A stretch of 32,271 bases of DNA from Alphaproteobacteria bacterium (GTDB lineage: Bacteria; Pseudomonadota; Alphaproteobacteria; GCA-2731375), in NCBI GenBank assembly GCA_963577885.1, contig CAUZBE010000002.1:1-32271 (forward strand), written 5' to 3'. The number at the start of each line of letters is the position of its first letter. Positions within the stretch are counted from its first letter, which is position 1. Positions 14,834 through 31,973 of this stretch are shown piece by piece. The notes under the pieces are model-generated. The model saw only the letters and a program-made list of their open reading frames with translations, did no database searches and was not told the DNA's origin. Made by a program: the position numbers and the translations under genes.

Positions 14834-15292
14834 ATGAGTGCTGAAGCGAGGGTGAAGGAACTAGGTATCGAGCTGCCAATGCCGCCAACCCCGGTGGGCA
14901 GCTATGTGGGGGCAGTGCGGACCGGTAATCTGATTTATATTTCAGGTCAAGGTCCGCGCAAGCCGGATAATAGCTCCCTCACCGGCAAAGTCGGCGCCGA
15001 CGTGAGCATAGAAGAGGCCCAGGCCGCGGCCCGGCTGGTGGGCCTGAACGCTCTGGCTACCCTGCGGGCCGAGATCGGTAGCCTGGATCAGGTCAAGCGC
15101 GTCGTCAAAGTCTTCGGCATGGTGAATGCCACAGCAGATTTTTGCGAGCATCCGAAAGTCATCAACGGATTTTCCGACCTGATGTTCGAGATTTTTGGCG
15201 AAGCCGGACGGCATGCCCGATCCGCTGTCGGCATGAGCTCCCTGCCCTTCCAGATCCCGGTAGAGGTGGAAATGATTGTCGAACTGGTTTAG
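14834..15292 (+). CDS. RidA/YjgF/TdcF-family protein (reactive-intermediate deaminase-like)
   Basis: 152 aa. YVGAVRTGNLIYISGQGP, then the C-terminal HARSAVGMSSLPFQIPVEVEMIV, which retains the family Arg (ARSAV). A strong RBS (AGGGAGA) precedes the ATG. Confidence 0.85.
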   Translation: MSAEARVKELGIELPMPPTPVGSYVGAVRTGNLIYISGQGPRKPDNSSLTGKVGADVSIEEAQAAARLVGLNALATLRAEIGSLDQVKRVVKVFGMVNATADFCEHPKVINGFSDLMFEIFGEAGRHARSAVGMSSLPFQIPVEVEMIVELV

Positions 15293-15326
15293 ATGACAGG
15301 AAAAGTGGAAGAAGGATGGCAGGCGC

Positions 15327-16493
15327 ATGAAGATCAGATCTGTCGAGGCCACCTGGCTTTGCGTACCCATACCCGAGGACAAGCAGCATACCTCTGACTT
15401 TGGGCGCATGAGCTCTTTCAATACGGTGCTGGTGCGCATCGAGACCGAGGACGGCCTGATCGGCCATGGCGAGGCCAAGGCCGGGGTCGGCAATCTGGGC
15501 GATGGCCGGGCCCTGGTGGCATTGATCCAGGACGAGTTGGGTGCACAGTTGATCGGTCAGGATGCCCGCCGCATCGCCGGCCATTGGGAGGAAATGTATA
15601 ATGGCAGCCGGACTCATTTCGCGGTCGAGCGGGGGCATGTCTTTCCGGCCTTGGGCCGGCGCGGCCTGACCATTTCCGCCATCAGCGGCATCGACATTGC
15701 GCTTTGGGATCTTCTGGGCCAATCCTTGGGGGTGCCGGTCTGGCAGCTTTTAGGTGGCAAATGTCGTGACAGTCTGGCGGCCTATGCATCGGGCGGCTGG
15801 GCCCCGGCTGAGAGCATCGGCGAACAATTGGCCGGTTATATGGCTGCCGCCGGTTTCGGCGCCGTGAAAATGCGGGTTGGCTCCGCAGATGGCGATGCCC
15901 GAACCTCGGCCCGGCGGGTCGCCGCCGCCCGCGAATACCTGGGCGAAGGCGTGGCGATAATGGCCGATGCCCACGGGACCTTTGATTGCGCCGAAGCCAA
16001 GCGGTTCTGCCGTCTGGTCGCCGATTGCGATCTGGCCTGGCTGGAGGAGCCGGTTACAGCGGACGACATCGCGGGCTGCGCCGAGATCCGTGCCAGTACC
16101 GATATCCCCATCGCGGCGGGGGAAAGTATCTTCACCCGCTTTGATTTCCGCGACCTGGCCATGGCCCGCGCGGTCGATATCTTTCAGCCGGATCTGGCCA
16201 TCTGTGGCGGCATAACCGAGGCCATGCGCATCGCCGCCCTGGCCAGCAGTCAGCAAATCCGCCTGGCGCCGCACATGTGGGGCGGGGCGGTCATGTTCGC
16301 CGCCGGCCTGCAAATTTGCGCCACGGCGCCGGCAGCCTTTATCGTGGAATATTCCCTGGGTCATAATCCCTTGATGCACGATCTGGTGGCGCAGCGTTTC
16401 ACGGTTGAGGGTGGACGGATCGACATTCCGGACCGCCCCGGTCTGGGCCTGACCATCGACATGGATTTTGTCCGCACCTATGCTGTCAATTGA
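15327..16493 (+). CDS. Enolase-superfamily enzyme, mandelate racemase/muconate lactonising enzyme family (acid-sugar dehydratase or racemase-like)
   Basis: 388 aa. N-terminal capping domain (VLVRIETEDGLIGHGEA), barrel motifs AVKMRVG, MADAHG (metal Asp), WLEEP (Glu) and AAGES (Glu), plus a PH..GG region. The substrate cannot be assigned from sequence alone. Confidence 0.85.
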   Translation: MKIRSVEATWLCVPIPEDKQHTSDFGRMSSFNTVLVRIETEDGLIGHGEAKAGVGNLGDGRALVALIQDELGAQLIGQDARRIAGHWEEMYNGSRTHFAVERGHVFPALGRRGLTISAISGIDIALWDLLGQSLGVPVWQLLGGKCRDSLAAYASGGWAPAESIGEQLAGYMAAAGFGAVKMRVGSADGDARTSARRVAAAREYLGEGVAIMADAHGTFDCAEAKRFCRLVADCDLAWLEEPVTADDIAGCAEIRASTDIPIAAGESIFTRFDFRDLAMARAVDIFQPDLAICGGITEAMRIAALASSQQIRLAPHMWGGAVMFAAGLQICATAPAAFIVEYSLGHNPLMHDLVAQRFTVEGGRIDIPDRPGLGLTIDMDFVRTYAVN

Positions 16494-16526
16494 CCATTCC
16501 TGACCCCACGTACTAGGAGATCGCCC

Positions 16527-17651
16527 ATGCAACTCGGCATGTTCACGATGCCCCTACACGACCCGGCCCGAAACCTGACGGATGTTTTGTCCGAGGATCG
16601 GGAGGCCGTGTTGCTAGCCGACAGCCTGGGCATGGCGGAAGCCTGGTGTGGCGAACATGTCAGCTCCACCGCCGAGCCCGTAGCCTCGTCCCTGATGTTC
16701 TTCGCCTCGCTGATCGAGCAGACCAAGGCCATAAAATTCGCCTCCGGCGTTTTGAACCTACCGCAACAGCACCCGGCGCAAGTGGCAGCGCAAGTCGCCA
16801 ATTTTGATCATATGTCACGGGGTCGCTATATCATGGGCATCGGCCCCGGCGGCCTGATCAGTGATTTTGAATTGCTGAGCCTAACCGATCAGAAACAGCG
16901 CCGCGAAATGATGTTGGAATCCATCGGCATTATTCAAGAGATCTGGACGTCGGGCGGCCCGGGCTATGACATAGACGGCAAATACTGGCCCGTGAAACTG
17001 CAAGATGCCGTCATACCGCACCTGGGCATCGGGCAGATCTGTCGAACTTACCAGCAACCTTTCCCAACCGTTTGTTTGTCCATCGTCTCACCCCATTCAT
17101 CATCAGCAACCATGGCGGCGGAACGGGGCTGGGAAATTGTTTCCGCTAATTTCATTCAATCCCGCTATATCCAAAGCCATTGGCAAGCCTATAAAAAGGG
17201 TTGTGAGAATGTGCGACGGCGGGCGGACCCCAAGGTCTGGCGCATCGCCCGCTCCATCCTGGTCACGGATGATGCCCAACGGGCCGAAGACTACGTGGCG
17301 GATCCCAACGGCGGCCTGAGCTTCTATTTCCGCTATTTCATGGATCAATACCGCCGCCGCGGCATCTTGGAGATGTTGAAGCCTGATACCGCCGTCACCG
17401 ACGATGATTTGGAACTGAATGATATTATCCGTTCTATGGTAACCCATGGTGATGCCGCCGACGTGCTGGATCAACTGGTGGCGTTGTGCGAGCAGTGGGG
17501 TGAATTTGGCACCCTGTTGATGGTTGGCCACGATTGGGACGATCAGGCTATTTGGCGCCGCTCCATGAGCCTGCTGGCGGAGCAGGTCATGCCCCGCCTG
17601 AATCAGCATTTGGAGAGCCAGCGTTCGGCGGAAATCTCGGCAGCGGAATAA
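16527..17651 (+). CDS. LLM-class (luciferase-like) flavin-dependent oxidoreductase/monooxygenase
   Basis: 374 aa. MQLGMFTMPLHDP....DREAVLLADSLGMAEAWCGEHVSS is the typical start of the LimB-like LLM subgroup. It lies 33 nt downstream of the MR/MLE gene on the same strand. Confidence 0.85.
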   Translation: MQLGMFTMPLHDPARNLTDVLSEDREAVLLADSLGMAEAWCGEHVSSTAEPVASSLMFFASLIEQTKAIKFASGVLNLPQQHPAQVAAQVANFDHMSRGRYIMGIGPGGLISDFELLSLTDQKQRREMMLESIGIIQEIWTSGGPGYDIDGKYWPVKLQDAVIPHLGIGQICRTYQQPFPTVCLSIVSPHSSSATMAAERGWEIVSANFIQSRYIQSHWQAYKKGCENVRRRADPKVWRIARSILVTDDAQRAEDYVADPNGGLSFYFRYFMDQYRRRGILEMLKPDTAVTDDDLELNDIIRSMVTHGDAADVLDQLVALCEQWGEFGTLLMVGHDWDDQAIWRRSMSLLAEQVMPRLNQHLESQRSAEISAAE

Positions 17652-26416: not shown

Positions 26417-26548
26417 TCAGGCCGCCGGCAGCTTAGCAAAGTCCGTCCGGCGCTTTTCTGTGAAGGCAGCGATGGCCTCGCAGTTCGCGGGCGCGCCGGT
26501 CAGGCGGCCAGCCAGCAGGACCCCAGGGAGGGAATGACCGCCTAAAGC
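26417..26548 (-). pseudogene. Possible remnant of an enoyl-CoA hydratase/crotonase C-terminus
   Basis: A short minus-strand frame bounded by stops reads ALGGHSLPGVLLAGRLTGAPANCEAIAAFTEKRRTDFAKLPAA. The E.IAAF.EKR...F motif is the canonical crotonase tail, but no upstream body is present. Only about 40 codons survive, so this is tentative. Confidence 0.3.
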
Positions 26549-26735
26549 CTATGTTTTCTGCGGGTATTACGACCTATTTCGATTGCTACCCGCAAACCTA
26601 CCCCCAAACTAGCTTGGCATTGAAAGCGTAGTCGGGTCCCTTTGGGCAAATCCGGAACAGCCCCCAATGCCGCAACAATTAAAGCTTTCACAAAGAGCTC
26701 CCGTCATCGACAGAGGGCGACGGAGAGCAGCGTTC

Positions 26736-26882
26736 CGCGCACACGATGCCTGGGATAGCCCATCGAGGACCGAGGCCCACCGGCAGGCCATGATGGAGCT
26801 CATCGACACCGGACCCGCTCACATCGCGCACCCCGCAAGGTGGGCTCCGTTCGTGGTGGTTGGTGAAGGTGCGAGGCGGTAG
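26736..26882 (+). pseudogene. Remnant of a CHAT-domain protein C-terminus
   Basis: The end of ORF 26667..26882 reads ...RAHDAWDSPSRTEAHRQAMMELIDTGPAHIAHPARWAPFVVVGEGARR. (A)LRQAM..LI.....HP..WAPFVVVGEG is the characteristic CHAT-family tail. No CHAT catalytic core lies upstream, and the spacing suggests an internal deletion. Confidence 0.45.
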
Positions 26883-26985
26883 CTGTCCGACTACCGCTCA
26901 CCAGCCCCAGAGACCATCATGCCGATGGCAACCAGGACGGTCATGCACTAACATTTAAACCGGACCACTCAACGGGGGCCTACCA

Positions 26986-28398
26986 ATGGGAAATAAAACA
27001 TTAATTGTTTCTGATTACTCGCCAACCAACGCGCATAGATATCCTGCGGCTGTTAAGGCTGGAGGACTTGTATTTTTGTCGGGTGTTAGGCCTTCTAATA
27101 AAAGTGATAGCCGCAGGGGTTTTAATGATATCCCGGTTGGTGGCTATAATAAAAAACAAGGCTTTAGCATGGTTGATAGTTTGGAAAGTAAAGTTGCCTA
27201 TGATTCTTGGTTTTCTCATAAAAATATGGACGCTGTACTTGAAATGGCGGGTAGTGGCGGCGACCAAATTCTCCGGCAACATATTTGGCAAAAAGATAAA
27301 CGATTTTTTCCTATTTATGAGGACATTCGCCAGGTATTGCAAAAGGTACCATCTCCAAGTAGTGGCCTTGGGGTATCAGAAGTATTCGGAGATCCGTATT
27401 TTACGATAGGTATTGACGCAATCGCAGTTTGTCCTGATGAAAATCCAAATTTGCCGTCTCGGGAGGTTATTGCGGCAATGGATGACAAGGATTTACCAGC
27501 GGCATCATTCTATTCCCAGGCAGTTCGTTCCGGGCCGTTAGTTTTTACGGCAGGGCATATACCTATTAAAACCTCGGAGCGTGGCAAACCTCTCGTCAAT
27601 TCCTTCGAAGATTTACCCATGGAAGGCCGTTTTCTTGAAACAGGACGTAGTCACCCGGACAGTCGAGACGGCCCAATTGCGTCACAAAGTTGGCATGTCT
27701 ACAAAGAATTAGAAAGGACCTTGCGAAAGCAGGGGTTGGAATTATCTGATACAATTAATGCAACAGTATTTTTGGCTGATATAAGAGATTTTCCGACATT
27801 TCACCGAATTCATAATCACATTTTCCGCGAAAAAAATACAGCTCTTACTGTCTCGGGGTTCGATGAAGTAGGGCATCGTGGTTGTCTTATCGAAATTGAG
27901 TTGACTGCCTCAGCCTCCATGAAGAATTTCGATAAGAATACATTCGACTGGCCTATTAAAGCGCCCTTTGCGGCCCCCTCAGCGACAAGTGCAGGGGGGT
28001 TTATATTTTATTCGGGGGTATTAGGTCTCAATTCAAGTAGTGAAATAGTTCAAAGTTTTAATGATTTTTGTTTTACTCCCGCAGATCTAGGTAAAATACT
28101 TGAAAATAATGAGGGGCACCCTAGCCTAGTGTGCCAATGTTGGGCGGCATTCGATTTATTATCAGAAAACGCCGAAAAAGCTAATTCAAGTTTAGATGAC
28201 CTGGTAAAAATCACTGTTTATTTAAAGAAAGCTGGGCATTTTAAGGTCTTTGATGAGGTGGCGTCGGAGTTCTTAAGTGAGGAAAACTTACCAGCTTTAG
28301 AGTGTGTGCTCATACCAAATCCGGGTCCAGTTCACGATGCGGTGGTCCAAATTGAGGCAATAGGATTTAGAAATGAAAAAAGGGCCGAGCTGATTTGA
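26986..28398 (+). CDS. Protein composed of three tandem RidA/YjgF (endoribonuclease L-PSP)-like domains; low-GC cassette
   Basis: 470 aa. There are three repeats of the family pattern. (1) YPAAVKAGGLVFLSGVRP...ILRQHIWQKDKRFFPIYEDI...IGIDAIAV. (2) YSQAVRSGPLVFTAGHIP...TINATVFLADIRDFPTFHRIH...CLIEIELTA. (3) PSATSAGGFIFYSGVLG...LVKITVYLKKAGHFKVFDEV...AVVQIEAIGF. Each repeat carries a similar insertion (GFNDIP / SFEDLP / SFNDFC ... W). GC is roughly 30-45% on hand-counted lines, versus about 60% in the flanks. Confidence 0.75.
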   Translation: MGNKTLIVSDYSPTNAHRYPAAVKAGGLVFLSGVRPSNKSDSRRGFNDIPVGGYNKKQGFSMVDSLESKVAYDSWFSHKNMDAVLEMAGSGGDQILRQHIWQKDKRFFPIYEDIRQVLQKVPSPSSGLGVSEVFGDPYFTIGIDAIAVCPDENPNLPSREVIAAMDDKDLPAASFYSQAVRSGPLVFTAGHIPIKTSERGKPLVNSFEDLPMEGRFLETGRSHPDSRDGPIASQSWHVYKELERTLRKQGLELSDTINATVFLADIRDFPTFHRIHNHIFREKNTALTVSGFDEVGHRGCLIEIELTASASMKNFDKNTFDWPIKAPFAAPSATSAGGFIFYSGVLGLNSSSEIVQSFNDFCFTPADLGKILENNEGHPSLVCQCWAAFDLLSENAEKANSSLDDLVKITVYLKKAGHFKVFDEVASEFLSEENLPALECVLIPNPGPVHDAVVQIEAIGFRNEKRAELI

Positions 28399-28454
28399 AT
28401 TACGATAAGCAAAAATAAGGACTCATGAACCGGGCATTTCTGTTTTCTCCTTAG

Positions 28455-28600
28455 GAAAGTTTTAATGCCCGCTTTAGGGACGAACTGCTAAACGGTGAAA
28501 TCTTCTACACCCTGAAAGAGGCCCAGATCATCATCGAAATATGGAGGAAACATTACAACACAAAGAGACTGCACAGTGCTTTGGGCTACGGCACCAAGAT
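28455..28600 (+). mobile_element. IS3-family transposase (rve/DDE integrase core) C-terminal fragment, a dead IS remnant
   Basis: The frame after stop TAG 28452-28454 reads ESFNARFRDELLNGEIFYTLKEAQIIIEIWRKHYNTKRLHSALGY. This matches the conserved IS3-family OrfB tail (SFN.R.RDELLN.E.F.SL.EA...IE.WR..YN..RPHS.LGY), with the RPH motif mutated to RLH. The upstream catalytic domain is absent and no inverted repeats were recognised. Confidence 0.7.
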
Positions 28601-28649
28601 GCCAGCAGTGAGACCCCTCCGCTACATCGATAGGCGACTATCAGACTTG

Positions 28650-31600
28650 CTATTTCAGTTCGTCAAGTAGTGCCTTCGCGTCTCTGAGGTCCGGTGTGTC
28701 AAGGCCCTCAGTAAACCATTCGTAAATTGTGCTCAAAACACCTCGCGCTTCGTCGTGTCGGCCGGTACCAGCCTGTATGCGAGCGAGGCTTACCGCGGCG
28801 CGCAACTCGAGCATTTTAGCCTGCTGCTGTCGGGCAATTTTGAGCGCGAGGTTAAAACATTCCTCACTGGCGTCGGTGTTTTCTTCGGGCTGGAGCATTA
28901 AAAGCCCACCCTTGATTCGAATTATCTCTGCCAAACACTTTTTTTCTCCAGTCGCCTCGACTAAACGTAAAGCCTCAGTGATCGACTCCAGGCCTTGTTC
29001 CGGCCTGCCAGCCCAACCTTGAACCTCAGCGAGCACGGCCAAGAATTCTGGTACGCGCAAACCCGCCCCGGTGCGTTGCCAGGCCGCCAGCCCCTTGCTG
29101 ATTTCGGCGACGCCATTTTCGAGGTCACCTTCTACGGCTGTCGCCCAGCCATGCACAGCATTGCCCAGACTGCCATAGTTCAGAACGCCATGTTCCTGAC
29201 TCAAAGCAATGCAAATCTCAGCCTGTTGGCGCGCCACCGTCGCATCACGGCAGAGTAGATAATAATAACTGGTAAAAAAATGTGCCAGAATCAATGTCAT
29301 TGGGTGGCCAAGATTTTCAGCGCTGGCTAAGGTCTCTTGGGCGCTATTGGCGGCTTGCTCAAGATGGCCGAGATACCATTGAGACTGCATCAAATGGGAA
29401 CTGGCACAGACACCCGGATCGTGGCCGCCGTAGAGGAGGACATGAGTTTTATGCTCGGCAGAATCATAGTCGTCGTGCCCACGTTGGGAATGCTGTCGGC
29501 ACAGCTCGAAATCGGCCGTGGAGAGAAAGCTTGTCCAAGCTGAATGGCGCGCCTGTAATAACAGTATGGGCTTATCCTGTCGCTCGGCGACTTCCAGCAG
29601 TTCATGCGAAAGACCATGCGCAGGCACTAAACGGGCGCCCTGTTGCGCGTTGATCCAAAGCCCCCAGGTGAAGGCAAACTGTTGCTCCGGCGTTCCCACC
29701 CGTTGACACAGATCGCGAGCCGCAGTGTAGGCGTCAGTGACCTCTGGTGCTGCATAACCCTTGTTCGCAAGAAGCACCGTGCCTCGCATGAGTCTAAGGT
29801 CCAGCTCGCTTCGATCTCGCTCCAAGCCTTCCGGCAATGCTGTGACCAGTTCGAGGCCCCTCTCTAAATGCGCAATAGCCTCGTGGTTGGCAGATCGTTC
29901 GACGGCACGATTTCCCGCGCGTGCCCAATAGAAGACAGCCCGGTCGGTCTGCCCCGCTTCCGAGAAATGATGGGCCAGAACCTCGGGCATGGTCTGAAAA
30001 ATTTCTGGAAAATCTCGTTCGCTGGTCTCTGCTATGTCACGATGTAGCTCCCGGCGACGGCTGATCAAAAGCGACTCATACGCCGCATCCTGAACCAATG
30101 TTTGCTTGAAAGCATAGATCCTATCCGTCGCCGCACCTTGGCGAATTACAAGCCCGGATCGAACCAATTTCTCCAAATCGCTTTCAAGTTGGAGTTCTTG
30201 CTGTTCGGTAATTGCGGCCAGCAAATCATGGCTAAACTCACGACCTATGACGGCGCCAATCTGCGCGAGACGCTTAGCGCTACCGAGCCGGTCGATGCTT
30301 GCCATGAGAGAAGCCTGAAGCGTGGTCGGAATGTTGCCCATGTTTGCGATGTCACCACTGTCCAGGACCGTTTGGGTTAGCGCTTCGACGAATAGGGGCA
30401 CACCGTCTGCACGCGCTACAATTCGTTCAATGATATAGCTTGTCAGATCCTCACCGCCGGAGGCGTGTACAATTTCGGCGCCTTGTTCGCGGCTGAGCCG
30501 GTTCAATGCGACCGATGTAAGGTGTGGTTGGTCGGGCCAGATATCGGATCGCTCCGGACGATGGGTAATTAGCACTAGGACGCGAGCGCCTTGCACCTGC
30601 GCCATAATCTCCGCCACCAGGGATTTGGTCGTCGGATCGATCCAATGGGCGTCTTCCACCACGAAGAGTACCGGCCTCAGTTGGCTCAACGCGGTCACTT
30701 GATCAACCAATGCCTCTATCGTGCGGGCCCGGAGCAACTGTGGACTTAGCTCTAGCGAGCCATACCTATCCTCTGCCGGTAAAGAGAGCAGGGTCGCGAA
30801 GATAGGCGCAATGCTTGCGATGTTCGCATTGGAAAGGCGCAACAATGATTCGAGTTTGTCAAGTTTGGTGTCAATATCGTCTTCGGTGGAGAATCTGGCT
30901 GCCCGCGTCAGCCTCTGGATGATGGGATAGAGCGCGGTGTTCGCGTGAAGGGGCGAGCACTGGTAGCGCAAACCAAAATGGGTTTCATTTAGGATTTCAT
31001 CGCGCAATGTGCGCACAAGGCGTGACTTGCCGATGCCGGGTCCGCCGGCCAGCAGTACTACTTGGCCCTCTCCGCCTTTTGCCTGCGACCATCGCTCCGT
31101 TAGTAGACCTAATTCATGCTTCCGACCAACGAAACGGGTGAGTGTTTCTTCATGTCGCGCGTCGAACCGGCTTTCCGCCTGGCCTTCGCCGGTGACCGCC
31201 CAACACGGCACAGATTGTTCAAATCCTTTGAGATTATGTGGGCCGAGATCCTCAAGTACAAATACCATGCCGATCAGTTGCCTAGTCAACGCATTAATCA
31301 CCACCTGTCCGGGCAACGCCATACCTTGAAGTCGCGCCGCCAGGTTTGGGGTCTCTCCGCTTACGGCTTCCAAATCCGAGGCCGTATCGCCGACCAAGTC
31401 ACCAACGACCACTTGACCTGTCGCTATGCCAACTCGTGCGCGTAGAGTTTCGCCGACAATTTTGATCTTTTCGACGGCGGTGTGGGCGTCGAGCGCAGCA
31501 CGGACCGCTCGGGCGGCTTGGTCCTCATGCGCATGAGGCCAGCCGAAATATGCGAGCACGCCATCGCCCAGAAACTTCGCAATATGTCCCTCATAGCGGA

Positions 31601-31973
31601 TCACGGCGCTTGCTACGGCATCTTGGTATCGCGCCATAATATCGCGTAGGTCTTCTGGGTCGAGGCGGCGGGATAATTCAGTCGAACCCACCAAGTCACA
31701 AAACATGACTGTCAGCTGACGACGTTCGGCAGTAGTTGAACGATGGTCCTGATCTTTGGCAACCTGAATGCTTGCCGGGGCGACTTCTTTGCTGCCTAGC
31801 TGTGCAATGGCACGAAGCAGTCGTTTGCTGTCTCCTAAGTTGACGCCAAGTTGTTGTAGATCGTCTTTGTCCAAGTCCGCGACGACATCAACACCGATGC
31901 CGTTCTCTACAAATACGTCGCCATATTTGCCTAGCCCGAGTTCTTCCAACCACTGGCGAATATCATCTTCCAT
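28650..31973 (-). CDS. Multidomain signalling protein: N-terminal SAM domain, class III adenylate/guanylate cyclase domain, STAND/AAA_16-type NTPase, and C-terminal TPR-like repeats
   Basis: 1107 aa. GGGGAGAG lies about 9 nt upstream of the ATG. SAM-like aa 3-60 (IRQWLEELGLGKYGDVFVENGIGVDVVADLDKDDLQQLGVNLGDSKRLLRAI). Cyclase aa ~84-262 (RRQLTVMFCDLVGST, IAKFLGDGVLAYFG, GIATGQVVVGDLVG, ETPNLAARLQ). Walker A LLAGGPGIGKSRLV (aa ~307-320) and Walker B LFVVEDAHWID (aa ~436-446). The last ~400 aa are helical repeat (TPR-like) sequence. GC is about 45-53% on hand-counted lines. Confidence 0.9.
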   Translation of the reverse strand: MEDDIRQWLEELGLGKYGDVFVENGIGVDVVADLDKDDLQQLGVNLGDSKRLLRAIAQLGSKEVAPASIQVAKDQDHRSTTAERRQLTVMFCDLVGSTELSRRLDPEDLRDIMARYQDAVASAVIRYEGHIAKFLGDGVLAYFGWPHAHEDQAARAVRAALDAHTAVEKIKIVGETLRARVGIATGQVVVGDLVGDTASDLEAVSGETPNLAARLQGMALPGQVVINALTRQLIGMVFVLEDLGPHNLKGFEQSVPCWAVTGEGQAESRFDARHEETLTRFVGRKHELGLLTERWSQAKGGEGQVVLLAGGPGIGKSRLVRTLRDEILNETHFGLRYQCSPLHANTALYPIIQRLTRAARFSTEDDIDTKLDKLESLLRLSNANIASIAPIFATLLSLPAEDRYGSLELSPQLLRARTIEALVDQVTALSQLRPVLFVVEDAHWIDPTTKSLVAEIMAQVQGARVLVLITHRPERSDIWPDQPHLTSVALNRLSREQGAEIVHASGGEDLTSYIIERIVARADGVPLFVEALTQTVLDSGDIANMGNIPTTLQASLMASIDRLGSAKRLAQIGAVIGREFSHDLLAAITEQQELQLESDLEKLVRSGLVIRQGAATDRIYAFKQTLVQDAAYESLLISRRRELHRDIAETSERDFPEIFQTMPEVLAHHFSEAGQTDRAVFYWARAGNRAVERSANHEAIAHLERGLELVTALPEGLERDRSELDLRLMRGTVLLANKGYAAPEVTDAYTAARDLCQRVGTPEQQFAFTWGLWINAQQGARLVPAHGLSHELLEVAERQDKPILLLQARHSAWTSFLSTADFELCRQHSQRGHDDYDSAEHKTHVLLYGGHDPGVCASSHLMQSQWYLGHLEQAANSAQETLASAENLGHPMTLILAHFFTSYYYLLCRDATVARQQAEICIALSQEHGVLNYGSLGNAVHGWATAVEGDLENGVAEISKGLAAWQRTGAGLRVPEFLAVLAEVQGWAGRPEQGLESITEALRLVEATGEKKCLAEIIRIKGGLLMLQPEENTDASEECFNLALKIARQQQAKMLELRAAVSLARIQAGTGRHDEARGVLSTIYEWFTEGLDTPDLRDAKALLDELK

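Follow-up and report, generated by a model that had tools for sequence, protein, structure and literature searches.

An arginine-less triple-Rid protein on a horizontally acquired cassette of an alphaproteobacterium: a predicted single-chain pseudo-trimer with unequal domains

The fusion of the three subunits of a Rid (RidA/YjgF) trimer into one polypeptide is established for the chorismatases FkbO and Hyg5, and the 2014 FkbO structure paper of Juneja et al. reportedly describes monomers whose pseudo-threefold symmetry relates them to the RidA trimer and which have a single inter-domain active site. The same has been proposed for the cyanuric acid hydrolase AtzD and barbiturase, whose 'Toblerone' fold would come from the concatenation of three YjgF-superfamily monomers (Peat et al. 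2013, PMC3758960), and three tandem Rid domains in one chain have been published as '3x-RidA' proteins, such as EF_0115 of Enterococcus faecalis, described as 'presumably covalently linked trimer units' (Niehaus et al. 2015, BMC Genomics 16:382, PMC4433059); in our literature search the term '3x-RidA' was found in that paper alone. We analysed a window of 32,271 nucleotides (the whole stretch taken from contig CAUZBE010000002.1 of the Alphaproteobacteria bacterium assembly GCA_963577885.1), in which one open reading frame (ORF), called here the triple-Rid gene, codes for a chain of this kind (Table 1). The original prediction, made from the sequence of the window, had put forward the covalent trimer, an idea that in view of the systems above is not new. 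Taken as a whole, the locus is best explained, with a probability that we place moderately above even, by an asymmetric single-chain triple-Rid enzyme encoded on a solitary, horizontally acquired cassette. Our confidence is high as to the architecture, membership of the family and horizontal transfer, and what this analysis adds is the inequality of the domains, the importer-linked neighbourhoods of the homologues and the solitary-cassette status of the window copy.

The whole protein matched PF01042 (Endoribonuclease L-PSP, Rid family) with 111.6 bits over four stretches, the Pfam cut-off being 27.3 bits. When the protein was cut at residues 160 and 312 and the domains were scanned one by one, domain 2 (61.9 bits) and domain 3 (37.4 bits) passed the gathering cut-off and domain 1 (24.5 bits) fell just below it, so that two of the three PF01042 matches that had been expected were obtained directly. 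Domain 1 was accepted as a Rid domain despite this score because of the internal comparisons and of its match to PDB entry 3lyb (E 1e-6). BLASTP between the protein's own domains gave E values of 1e-11 (domains 1 and 2), 7e-10 (2 and 3) and 7e-6 (1 and 3), and hhalign, for which domain alignments from 38 family members were used, paired domain 1 with domain 2 at 97.9% (E 4.5e-13), domain 1 with domain 3 at 98.1% (E 1.1e-13) and domain 2 with domain 3 at 99.2% (E 9.9e-20). The Rid signature was read as AGGLVFLSG, SGPLVFTAG and AGGFIFYSG in the three domains, with further Rid strands (ATVFLAD and ITVYLKK) and the terminal strands IDAIAV, IEIELTA and VQIEAIG. The claim of three RidA/YjgF copies, with all the motifs quoted for it, was thus borne out by Pfam, BLASTP and hhalign.

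All three domains carried the same insertion of 20-30 residues, recognised as GFNDIP...W75 in domain 1, SFEDLP...W236 in domain 2 and SFNDFC...W386 in domain 3, and the hhalign alignments ran through it without a break. In the AlphaFold2 secondary structure the gap from strand beta3 to helix alpha1 was 30-40 residues in every domain, against about 10 residues in canonical RidA. These similarities are consistent with an internal triplication that gave three homologous Rid domains in one chain. The common insertion, which had been put forward as an argument for the triplication, is indeed shared by the three domains and agrees with it, but it is not unique to them. The single-domain protein KP1_3112 of Klebsiella pneumoniae (3lyb), which was the best PDB sequence match of domain 2 (E 8e-14) as well as of domain 1 and matched the family profile with an E value of 9e-24, also carries this insertion (VNGFQDVP...GPILAQSWY) and likewise lacks the catalytic Arg. 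It is a 165-residue 'putative endoribonuclease' with four chains in the entry, and our literature search found no paper mentioning either 3LYB or KP1_3112. Neither the insertion nor the missing Arg is thus peculiar to triple proteins, and both may be older than the fusion.

No Arg was found at or beside the PAR position in any of the three domains, nor in 3lyb. The corresponding alignments were PSPS-SGLGV against PYPArAAIG in domain 1, NTALTVSG against PYPARATVA in domain 2 and LPALECV against KPARVAV in domain 3; one of the comparisons at Arg105 (E. coli numbering) was made with an E. coli RidA reference sequence. Domain 2 has Leu/Ser at the Arg105 position and keeps the equivalents of Tyr17 (Y176) and Glu120 (E303/E305). 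Arg was also absent from this position in 199 of the 201 domains of other triple-domain representatives, and the one-domain Rid gene at 14834..15292 keeps it (GRHARSAV), as had been read from the sequence before. The TIGR00004 model of the RidA subfamily scored 95.8 bits over five stretches of the three domains, below its cut-off of 106.25. Replacement of the Arg almost abolishes imine hydrolysis, and the Arg-less Rid7 showed no imine hydrolase activity; of the Arg-less Rid4-7 it was written that they 'most likely are not imine hydrolases' and that their functions are 'completely unknown' (Niehaus et al. 2015, PMC4433059). Recent work on Rid4-Rid7 structures was looked for in the literature and nothing relevant was found. 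Canonical 2-aminoacrylate/imine deamination is probably not the chemistry of this protein, in line with the original prediction. The window protein differs from the 3x-RidA proteins as described by Niehaus et al., which form a subset of the RidA subfamily with the catalytic Arg as a rule, whereas it has no Arg in any domain, bears a 3lyb-type insertion in each and is very unequally conserved.

An ordinary RidA-type enamine/imine deaminase, in which the fusion is a covalent trimer with three working sites, is what the database names of the homologues would imply ('enamine deaminase RidA', '2-iminobutanoate/2-iminopropanoate deaminase', 'Rid family hydrolase'). The Tyr17 and Glu120 equivalents of domain 2 point the same way, as do the gene for a pyridoxal phosphate (PLP)-dependent Cys/Met-metabolism enzyme found by Pfam 260 bp downstream in the close clade L004-L006 and L015, and an amidase gene, assigned by ORF reading only, that adjoins the homologue in L013. 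Against these stand the Arg missing from all three domains, the inactivity of Rid7, the TIGR00004 score and a conservation too unequal for three equivalent sites, and we regard a deaminase of this type as decidedly unlikely.

A model was calculated with AlphaFold2 from an alignment of 38 full-length homologues (46-87% identity), referred to below as the family alignment. The mean predicted local distance difference test value was 89.1 and the predicted template modelling score 0.92, so the relative placement of the three domains was predicted with confidence. The top Foldseek matches in the PDB were the chorismatases Hyg5/FkbO (5a3k, 5ag3 and 4bps; E about 6e-14, probability 1.00), which superposed on all three domains over 415 aligned columns with template modelling (TM) scores of 0.62-0.65, normalised to the target of about 335 residues, and 13-15% identity. 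The next match was 3lyb, covering one domain with a TM score of about 0.9, followed by chains of ordinary RidA trimers. This three-domain superposition on chorismatase pseudo-trimers supports the single-chain pseudo-trimer proposed in the original prediction, and the model indicates that the domains probably pack in a RidA-like, chorismatase-like manner.

The same matches raise the question of a chorismatase-type enzyme (FkbO/Hyg5/XanB2-like) that hydrolyses chorismate, since these are the best whole-chain structural relatives. The low identity in the structural alignment argues against it, and no chorismatase chain of the PDB was matched at E<=10 by the sequence or by the 38-member family profile, nor was there a chorismatase model among the NCBIfam matches at E<=10. 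The window protein is also about 135 residues longer because of its three insertions (470 residues against about 335), its genomic context differs, shikimate, polyketide and xanthomonadin genes not being among the recurrent neighbours of the family, and its conserved cleft would lie between the N-terminal and central domains, while that of the chorismatases lies between the central and C-terminal ones. Chorismatase activity thus appears extremely improbable. AtzD, in which the active site occupies the central barrel, the threefold symmetry is used and a metal site is present, did not appear among the 50 best Foldseek matches and gave no PDB match at E<=10 by sequence or family profile. Membership of both families was rejected for want of any sequence or profile similarity. 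The triple-Rid proteins are thus a lineage of their own with the same design, and would be, beside chorismatase and AtzD, another homotrimer that fusion has converted into an asymmetric single chain.

The three domains were far from equally conserved. In the family alignment, 39 of the 145 columns of domain 2 (residues 166-310) were invariant, as compared with 20 of 138 in domain 1 (residues 13-150) and 9 of 145 in domain 3 (residues 318-462). The invariant columns of domain 1 were concentrated in its C-terminal half (15 of the 20; LRQHIWQxDKRFFP and PSSGLGV) and included Q94, R97, H99, W101, Q102, D104, K105, R106 and F108 of the motif QILRQHIWQKDKRFFP. The insertion of domain 2 had 16 invariant columns out of 39 (GRSHPDSRDGPIA) and the insertions of domains 1 and 3 had none. 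The ratio of non-synonymous to synonymous substitution rates (dN/dS) against the homologue L001, 87% identical, rose from 0.07 in domain 1 and 0.12 in domain 2 to 0.27 in domain 3. About 20 His, Asp, Glu, Arg and Lys residues were invariant, again concentrated in domains 1 and 2, and such an abundance of unchanged His, Asp, Glu and Arg residues hints at catalysis.

Every cleft of RidA lies between two subunits, one of which contributes its 'primary' face and the other the beginning of its helix alpha2. The QILRQHIWQKDKRFFP region of domain 1 we take to be the face with which a subunit of RidA completes the cleft of the adjacent one. The primary face itself comprises the Tyr of the beta1-beta2 loop, the SG(Q) turn, the beta5 strand with the Arg and the Glu of beta6 (in part from PMC4433059 and PMC1884159). 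By alignment, both faces appear conserved in domains 1 and 2, and the secondary face of domain 3 only weakly, so that the cleft between domains 1 and 2 is the only one that would have both sides highly conserved, whichever way the ring runs. From this single doubly conserved cleft we infer one principal active site: the protein probably has one functional inter-domain cleft, between domains 1 and 2, and not three, and the degenerate domain 3 would mainly complete the barrel. The chorismatases, with their one catalytic cleft, offer a parallel. The single-chain heterotrimer with three non-equivalent clefts of the original prediction therefore held as regards the domains, which are not equivalent, and gave way as regards the clefts, conservation pointing to a dominant one.

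The gene neighbourhoods of homologues were studied by ORF clustering for 85 non-redundant loci and by precomputed Pfam matches for nine loci. An importer was encoded within 7 kb in 67 of the 85 loci, of the Liv-type ATP-binding cassette (ABC) class in 35 and of the TctABC class in 35, both being present in 3. A vicinal oxygen chelate (VOC) protein of 155-166 residues was found in 25 loci, usually directly downstream (as in L007, L008, L011 and L012, its gene overlapping the triple-Rid stop codon in L011), and a representative passed the NCBIfam equivalog cut-off for methylmalonyl-coenzyme A (CoA) epimerase (118.7 against 114.95). In one 625-residue homologue (P0094) the triple-Rid part was fused to a C-terminal VOC/glyoxalase domain; this is a single-member cluster, possibly an assembly or read-through artefact. 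Other recurrent partners were short-chain dehydrogenase/reductases (24 loci), zinc-dependent alcohol dehydrogenases (21), alpha/beta hydrolases (18), MenB/BadI-like crotonases (17), old yellow enzymes (17), MR_MLE enzymes (15), Amidohydro_2 proteins (13), single-domain Rid proteins (13), LysR regulators (11) and CoA-transferases III (10). Two triple-Rid paralogues were present in 12 loci, mostly of Paracoccaceae/Rhodobacteraceae (among them L066-L068, L070, L076-L078, L081, L085, L087 and L091), in most of which tctCBA lay between the copies; these loci also had genes for Amidohydro_2, crotonase, CoA-transferase III, MR_MLE, VOC and single-domain Rid proteins. The contexts were more varied in the closest clades, namely TctCBA with the PLP-dependent Cys/Met enzyme, an amidase with a hydantoinase, and a TauD-like dioxygenase with a flavoprotein, all but the Cys/Met enzyme being assigned by reading ORF sequences, without a family scan. 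Taken together, the neighbourhoods lead us to infer that the family takes part in the breakdown of small organic acids that is coupled to their uptake, in many cases by way of CoA esters.

The mechanism that we propose joins the domain inequality to these contexts. The gene fusion would have let the three 'subunits' specialise. Nearly all of the polar residues that are invariant (His, Asp, Glu, Arg) lie in domain 2, its insertion of 39 residues included, or in the C-terminal half of domain 1, and the two domains would form a single catalytic cleft between them. This cleft would probably process a small carboxylate or an intermediate of a CoA pathway imported by TctABC or the Liv-type ABC system, as the neighbourhoods and the chemistry of the fold suggest, by acid/base-assisted addition of water, or by tautomerisation, at an sp2 carbon, a theme common to RidA and chorismatase. 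We give a catabolic enzyme with such a single cleft an even chance, and our confidence in any specific chemistry is low. A bolder version, which we hold only tentatively and consider doubtful, is a new enzyme class in which the fused trimer has one cleft between domains 1 and 2 that is lidded by the invariant GRSHPDSRDGPIA loop, is perhaps metal-dependent and catalyses a step, so far unassigned, in the breakdown via CoA esters of carboxylates imported by Tct or ABC systems. The part of a metal is speculation, for which H191, H223, H273, H276, H297, D225, D268, E294 and E303 are the candidate invariant residues. If this version were true, it would give the first function for an Arg-less Rid lineage.

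The protein could also be a non-catalytic small-molecule binding or regulatory protein, whose inter-domain clefts only bind ligands. Rid clefts hold carboxylates in crystal structures (PMC4433059, PMC1884159), the canonical catalytic Arg is lost, homologues adjoin transporters and LysR regulators, and both the window copy and L001 are flanked by adenylate/guanylate-cyclase signalling genes. On the other hand, the approximately 20 invariant charged or His residues of domains 1 and 2 are more typical of an active site, the gene stands among those of catabolic enzymes, in many cases closely linked or fused to them, and the nearest whole-chain structural relatives are enzymes, for which reasons we think a mere binder unlikely.

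The host of the window copy is an alphaproteobacterium of Rhodospirillaceae type, with a SAHH that shares 88% identity with the one of an uncultured Rhodospirillaceae metagenome-assembled genome, and its genome has a GC of 0.58-0.62. The GC content of the gene (0.427, and 0.35 at third codon positions, GC3) was well below that of nearby host genes (0.58-0.63 and 0.67-0.75, respectively), and the fall took place at about 26900-27000 in 100-bp bins. The homology with L017, a 1.7-kb contig of the Rhodospirillales metagenome-assembled genome UWMA-0295, began at 26891, 95 bp upstream of the ATG; the shared stretch (26892..28437 in the alignment) was 94.5% identical in DNA sequence and the flanks on both sides of it were unrelated, so that the cassette measures about 1.55 kb. 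L001, the nearest full homologue, lies in a native contig of 0.43 GC, matching the window gene. The donor of the horizontally transferred gene was a lineage with about 43% GC, and the low-GC cassette and its foreign origin, both recognised earlier from the window, are confirmed by the composition, by the L017 junctions and by a transposase remnant. This remnant, which starts 24 bp past the cassette end, consists of the final 45 codons (GC 0.41-0.46), no upstream part being present. At the other side, a 71-residue ORF ends 9 bp before the cassette; its CHAT match was below the gathering score, and a separate search with it gave no match at E 0.001. Terminal repeats and target-site duplications were looked for at the cassette ends and only short chance matches were found. 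In most other loci the GC of the triple-Rid gene equalled or slightly exceeded that of its flanks. In three Rhodospirillaceae loci (L013, L016 and L018) it was 0.07-0.11 lower, which suggests further independent transfers.

Lying between the C-terminal fragments of a CHAT protein and of a transposase, the gene could be an unused hitch-hiker from a decayed mobile element on its way to becoming a pseudogene. The usual partners of the family are missing around it, promoter and terminator scans of 26500..28750 gave counts no higher than the shuffled expectation, with none sensibly placed for the + strand ORF, and its stop codon comes 7 codons later than in L017 (which stops after ...GFRN) and P0002 (...GIRN). 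The resulting tail EKRAELI (28375-28398), absent from the closest homologues, shows that the stop codon has moved recently. The ORF is nevertheless intact and every family-invariant residue is present, and its dN/dS was 0.15 against L001 and 0.10-0.15 against the L017 copy. The gene has been under purifying selection since its split from L017, a result whose reach does not extend to present-day expression. An idle passenger is therefore improbable in our estimate, though not negligible.

Several observations speak against a specialised single-cleft enzyme encoded by a solitary cassette, the explanation that we prefer. Domain 3 keeps the primary-face residues P327, P331, G347, A437, Q455 and E457, and a second site is possible. 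The shared cleft of domains 1 and 2 rests on homology to the RidA topology and not on distances in the model, and the function is a prediction made for the whole family. The neighbourhoods are heterogeneous, with at least three recurrent cluster types in addition to the amidase/hydantoinase, TauD-like dioxygenase and PLP-enzyme contexts, and no single substrate emerges from them. Finally, within the window the gene has no partner gene usual in the family and no promoter-like or terminator-like site at either end.

The architecture was found to be widespread. A word-indexed search gave 295 clusters at 90% identity, of which no fewer than 120 were full-length (about 456-470 residues, 46-100% identity), and an exhaustive search of 50%-identity representatives gave 448 clusters at E<=1e-3. 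Three Rid domains were present in 79 of the best 150 representatives, including 67 of the 69 with at least 430 residues, and a pattern scan with one genome per species (155 loci) placed the architecture in at least 155 species genomes. The main taxa were Alphaproteobacteria (Rhodospirillaceae, SAR116, OCS116, Rhizobiales, Paracoccaceae and Acetobacteraceae), Betaproteobacteria and Nitrospinota, with a few cultured strains. The specialisation of the three domains seen in the window family was found in only about 15 of the representatives listed. By their sequences, these proteins make up a large Arg-less family, the triple-Rid chains of which consist of insertion-bearing Rid domains of the 3lyb type. 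The original prediction would have lost its point if the exact architecture were common and functionally annotated; it is common, and the annotation consists of generic names. The window instance is thus an ordinary one, a horizontally gained copy of a known, widespread and generically annotated family, and the interest that remains lies in the role of this large Arg-less family and in the predicted specialised cleft between domains 1 and 2.

Rid proteins are almost universal and include Arg-less subfamilies without a known activity, for which this family offers a large and tractable set. The conservation signal marks where to mutate, and the recurrent partners (TctABC and Liv-type importers, the methylmalonyl-CoA-epimerase-like VOC protein, MenB/BadI-like crotonase, CoA-transferase III and MR_MLE) narrow the search for a substrate. 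Cultured hosts suited to genetics are Rhizobium sp. NFR07, Maritimibacter alkaliphilus and Chachezhania antarctica.

Table 1. Features of the triple-Rid locus, in window coordinates
Feature	Position	Strand	Description
Triple-Rid ORF	26986..28398	+	ATG start, 470 aa, intact; GC 0.427, GC3 0.35
Domain 1	26986..27465	+	aa 1-160; Rid fold with variable insertion, aa 37-72
Domain 1 motif QILRQHIWQKDKRFFP	27265..27312	+	aa 94-109; by alignment, RidA strand beta4 and start of helix alpha2
Domain 2	27466..27921	+	aa 161-312; most conserved of the three
Domain 2 insertion	27574..27690	+	aa 197-235, ends ...GKPLVNSFEDLPMEGRFLETGRSHPDSRDGPIASQ; aligns with 3lyb insertion
Domain 3	27922..28395	+	aa 313-470; Rid fold, weakly conserved
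Transferred cassette, about 1.55 kb	26891..28437		94.5% nucleotide identity to contig L017; blastn and junction alignments
IS3-type transposase C-terminal remnant (FNARFRDELLNGEIFYTLKEAQIIIEIWRKHYNTKRLHSALGY)	28461..28595	+	rve_3, profile 22-66 of 67, Pfam E 9.2e-15
71-aa ORF, probable CHAT fragment (...HPARWAPFVVVGEG)	26667..26882	+	PF12770, E 0.003, profile 229-289 of 289

Among the more distant triple-Rid families (about 25-31% identity), several had three domains that were about equally similar to domain 2 (P0144, P0145, P0151, P0153, P0158, P0161, P0164, P0165 and others), and so represent the architecture in a more symmetric form. A cyclic permutation of the domain order, suggested by a few weak-scoring 'D3-D1-D2' patterns obtained in these families with domain-specific hidden Markov models, was rejected because most distant families have three domain 2-like domains. 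One distant relative of 803 residues (P0240) had six Rid-type domains in a single polypeptide, the N-terminal region of which resembled a signal peptide.

Downstream of the cassette, on the minus strand, 28650-31973 encodes an 1107-residue signalling protein with SAM, adenylate/guanylate cyclase, AAA_16 and TPR domains (GC 0.554, GC3 0.567), which in composition lies between the cassette and the host genes and is possibly also foreign. The triple-Rid gene of L001 is flanked by cyclase-TPR genes as well. A larger island shared with L001 was considered and rejected: the adjacent cyclase genes were only 29% identical over 182 residues and do not represent a co-transferred block. Elsewhere in the window, at 14834-17651 on the plus strand, the one-domain Rid gene (PF14588) is followed by genes for an MR_MLE enolase-superfamily enzyme and a luciferase-like monooxygenase, and MR_MLE is also a recurrent neighbour of triple-Rid genes in other genomes.

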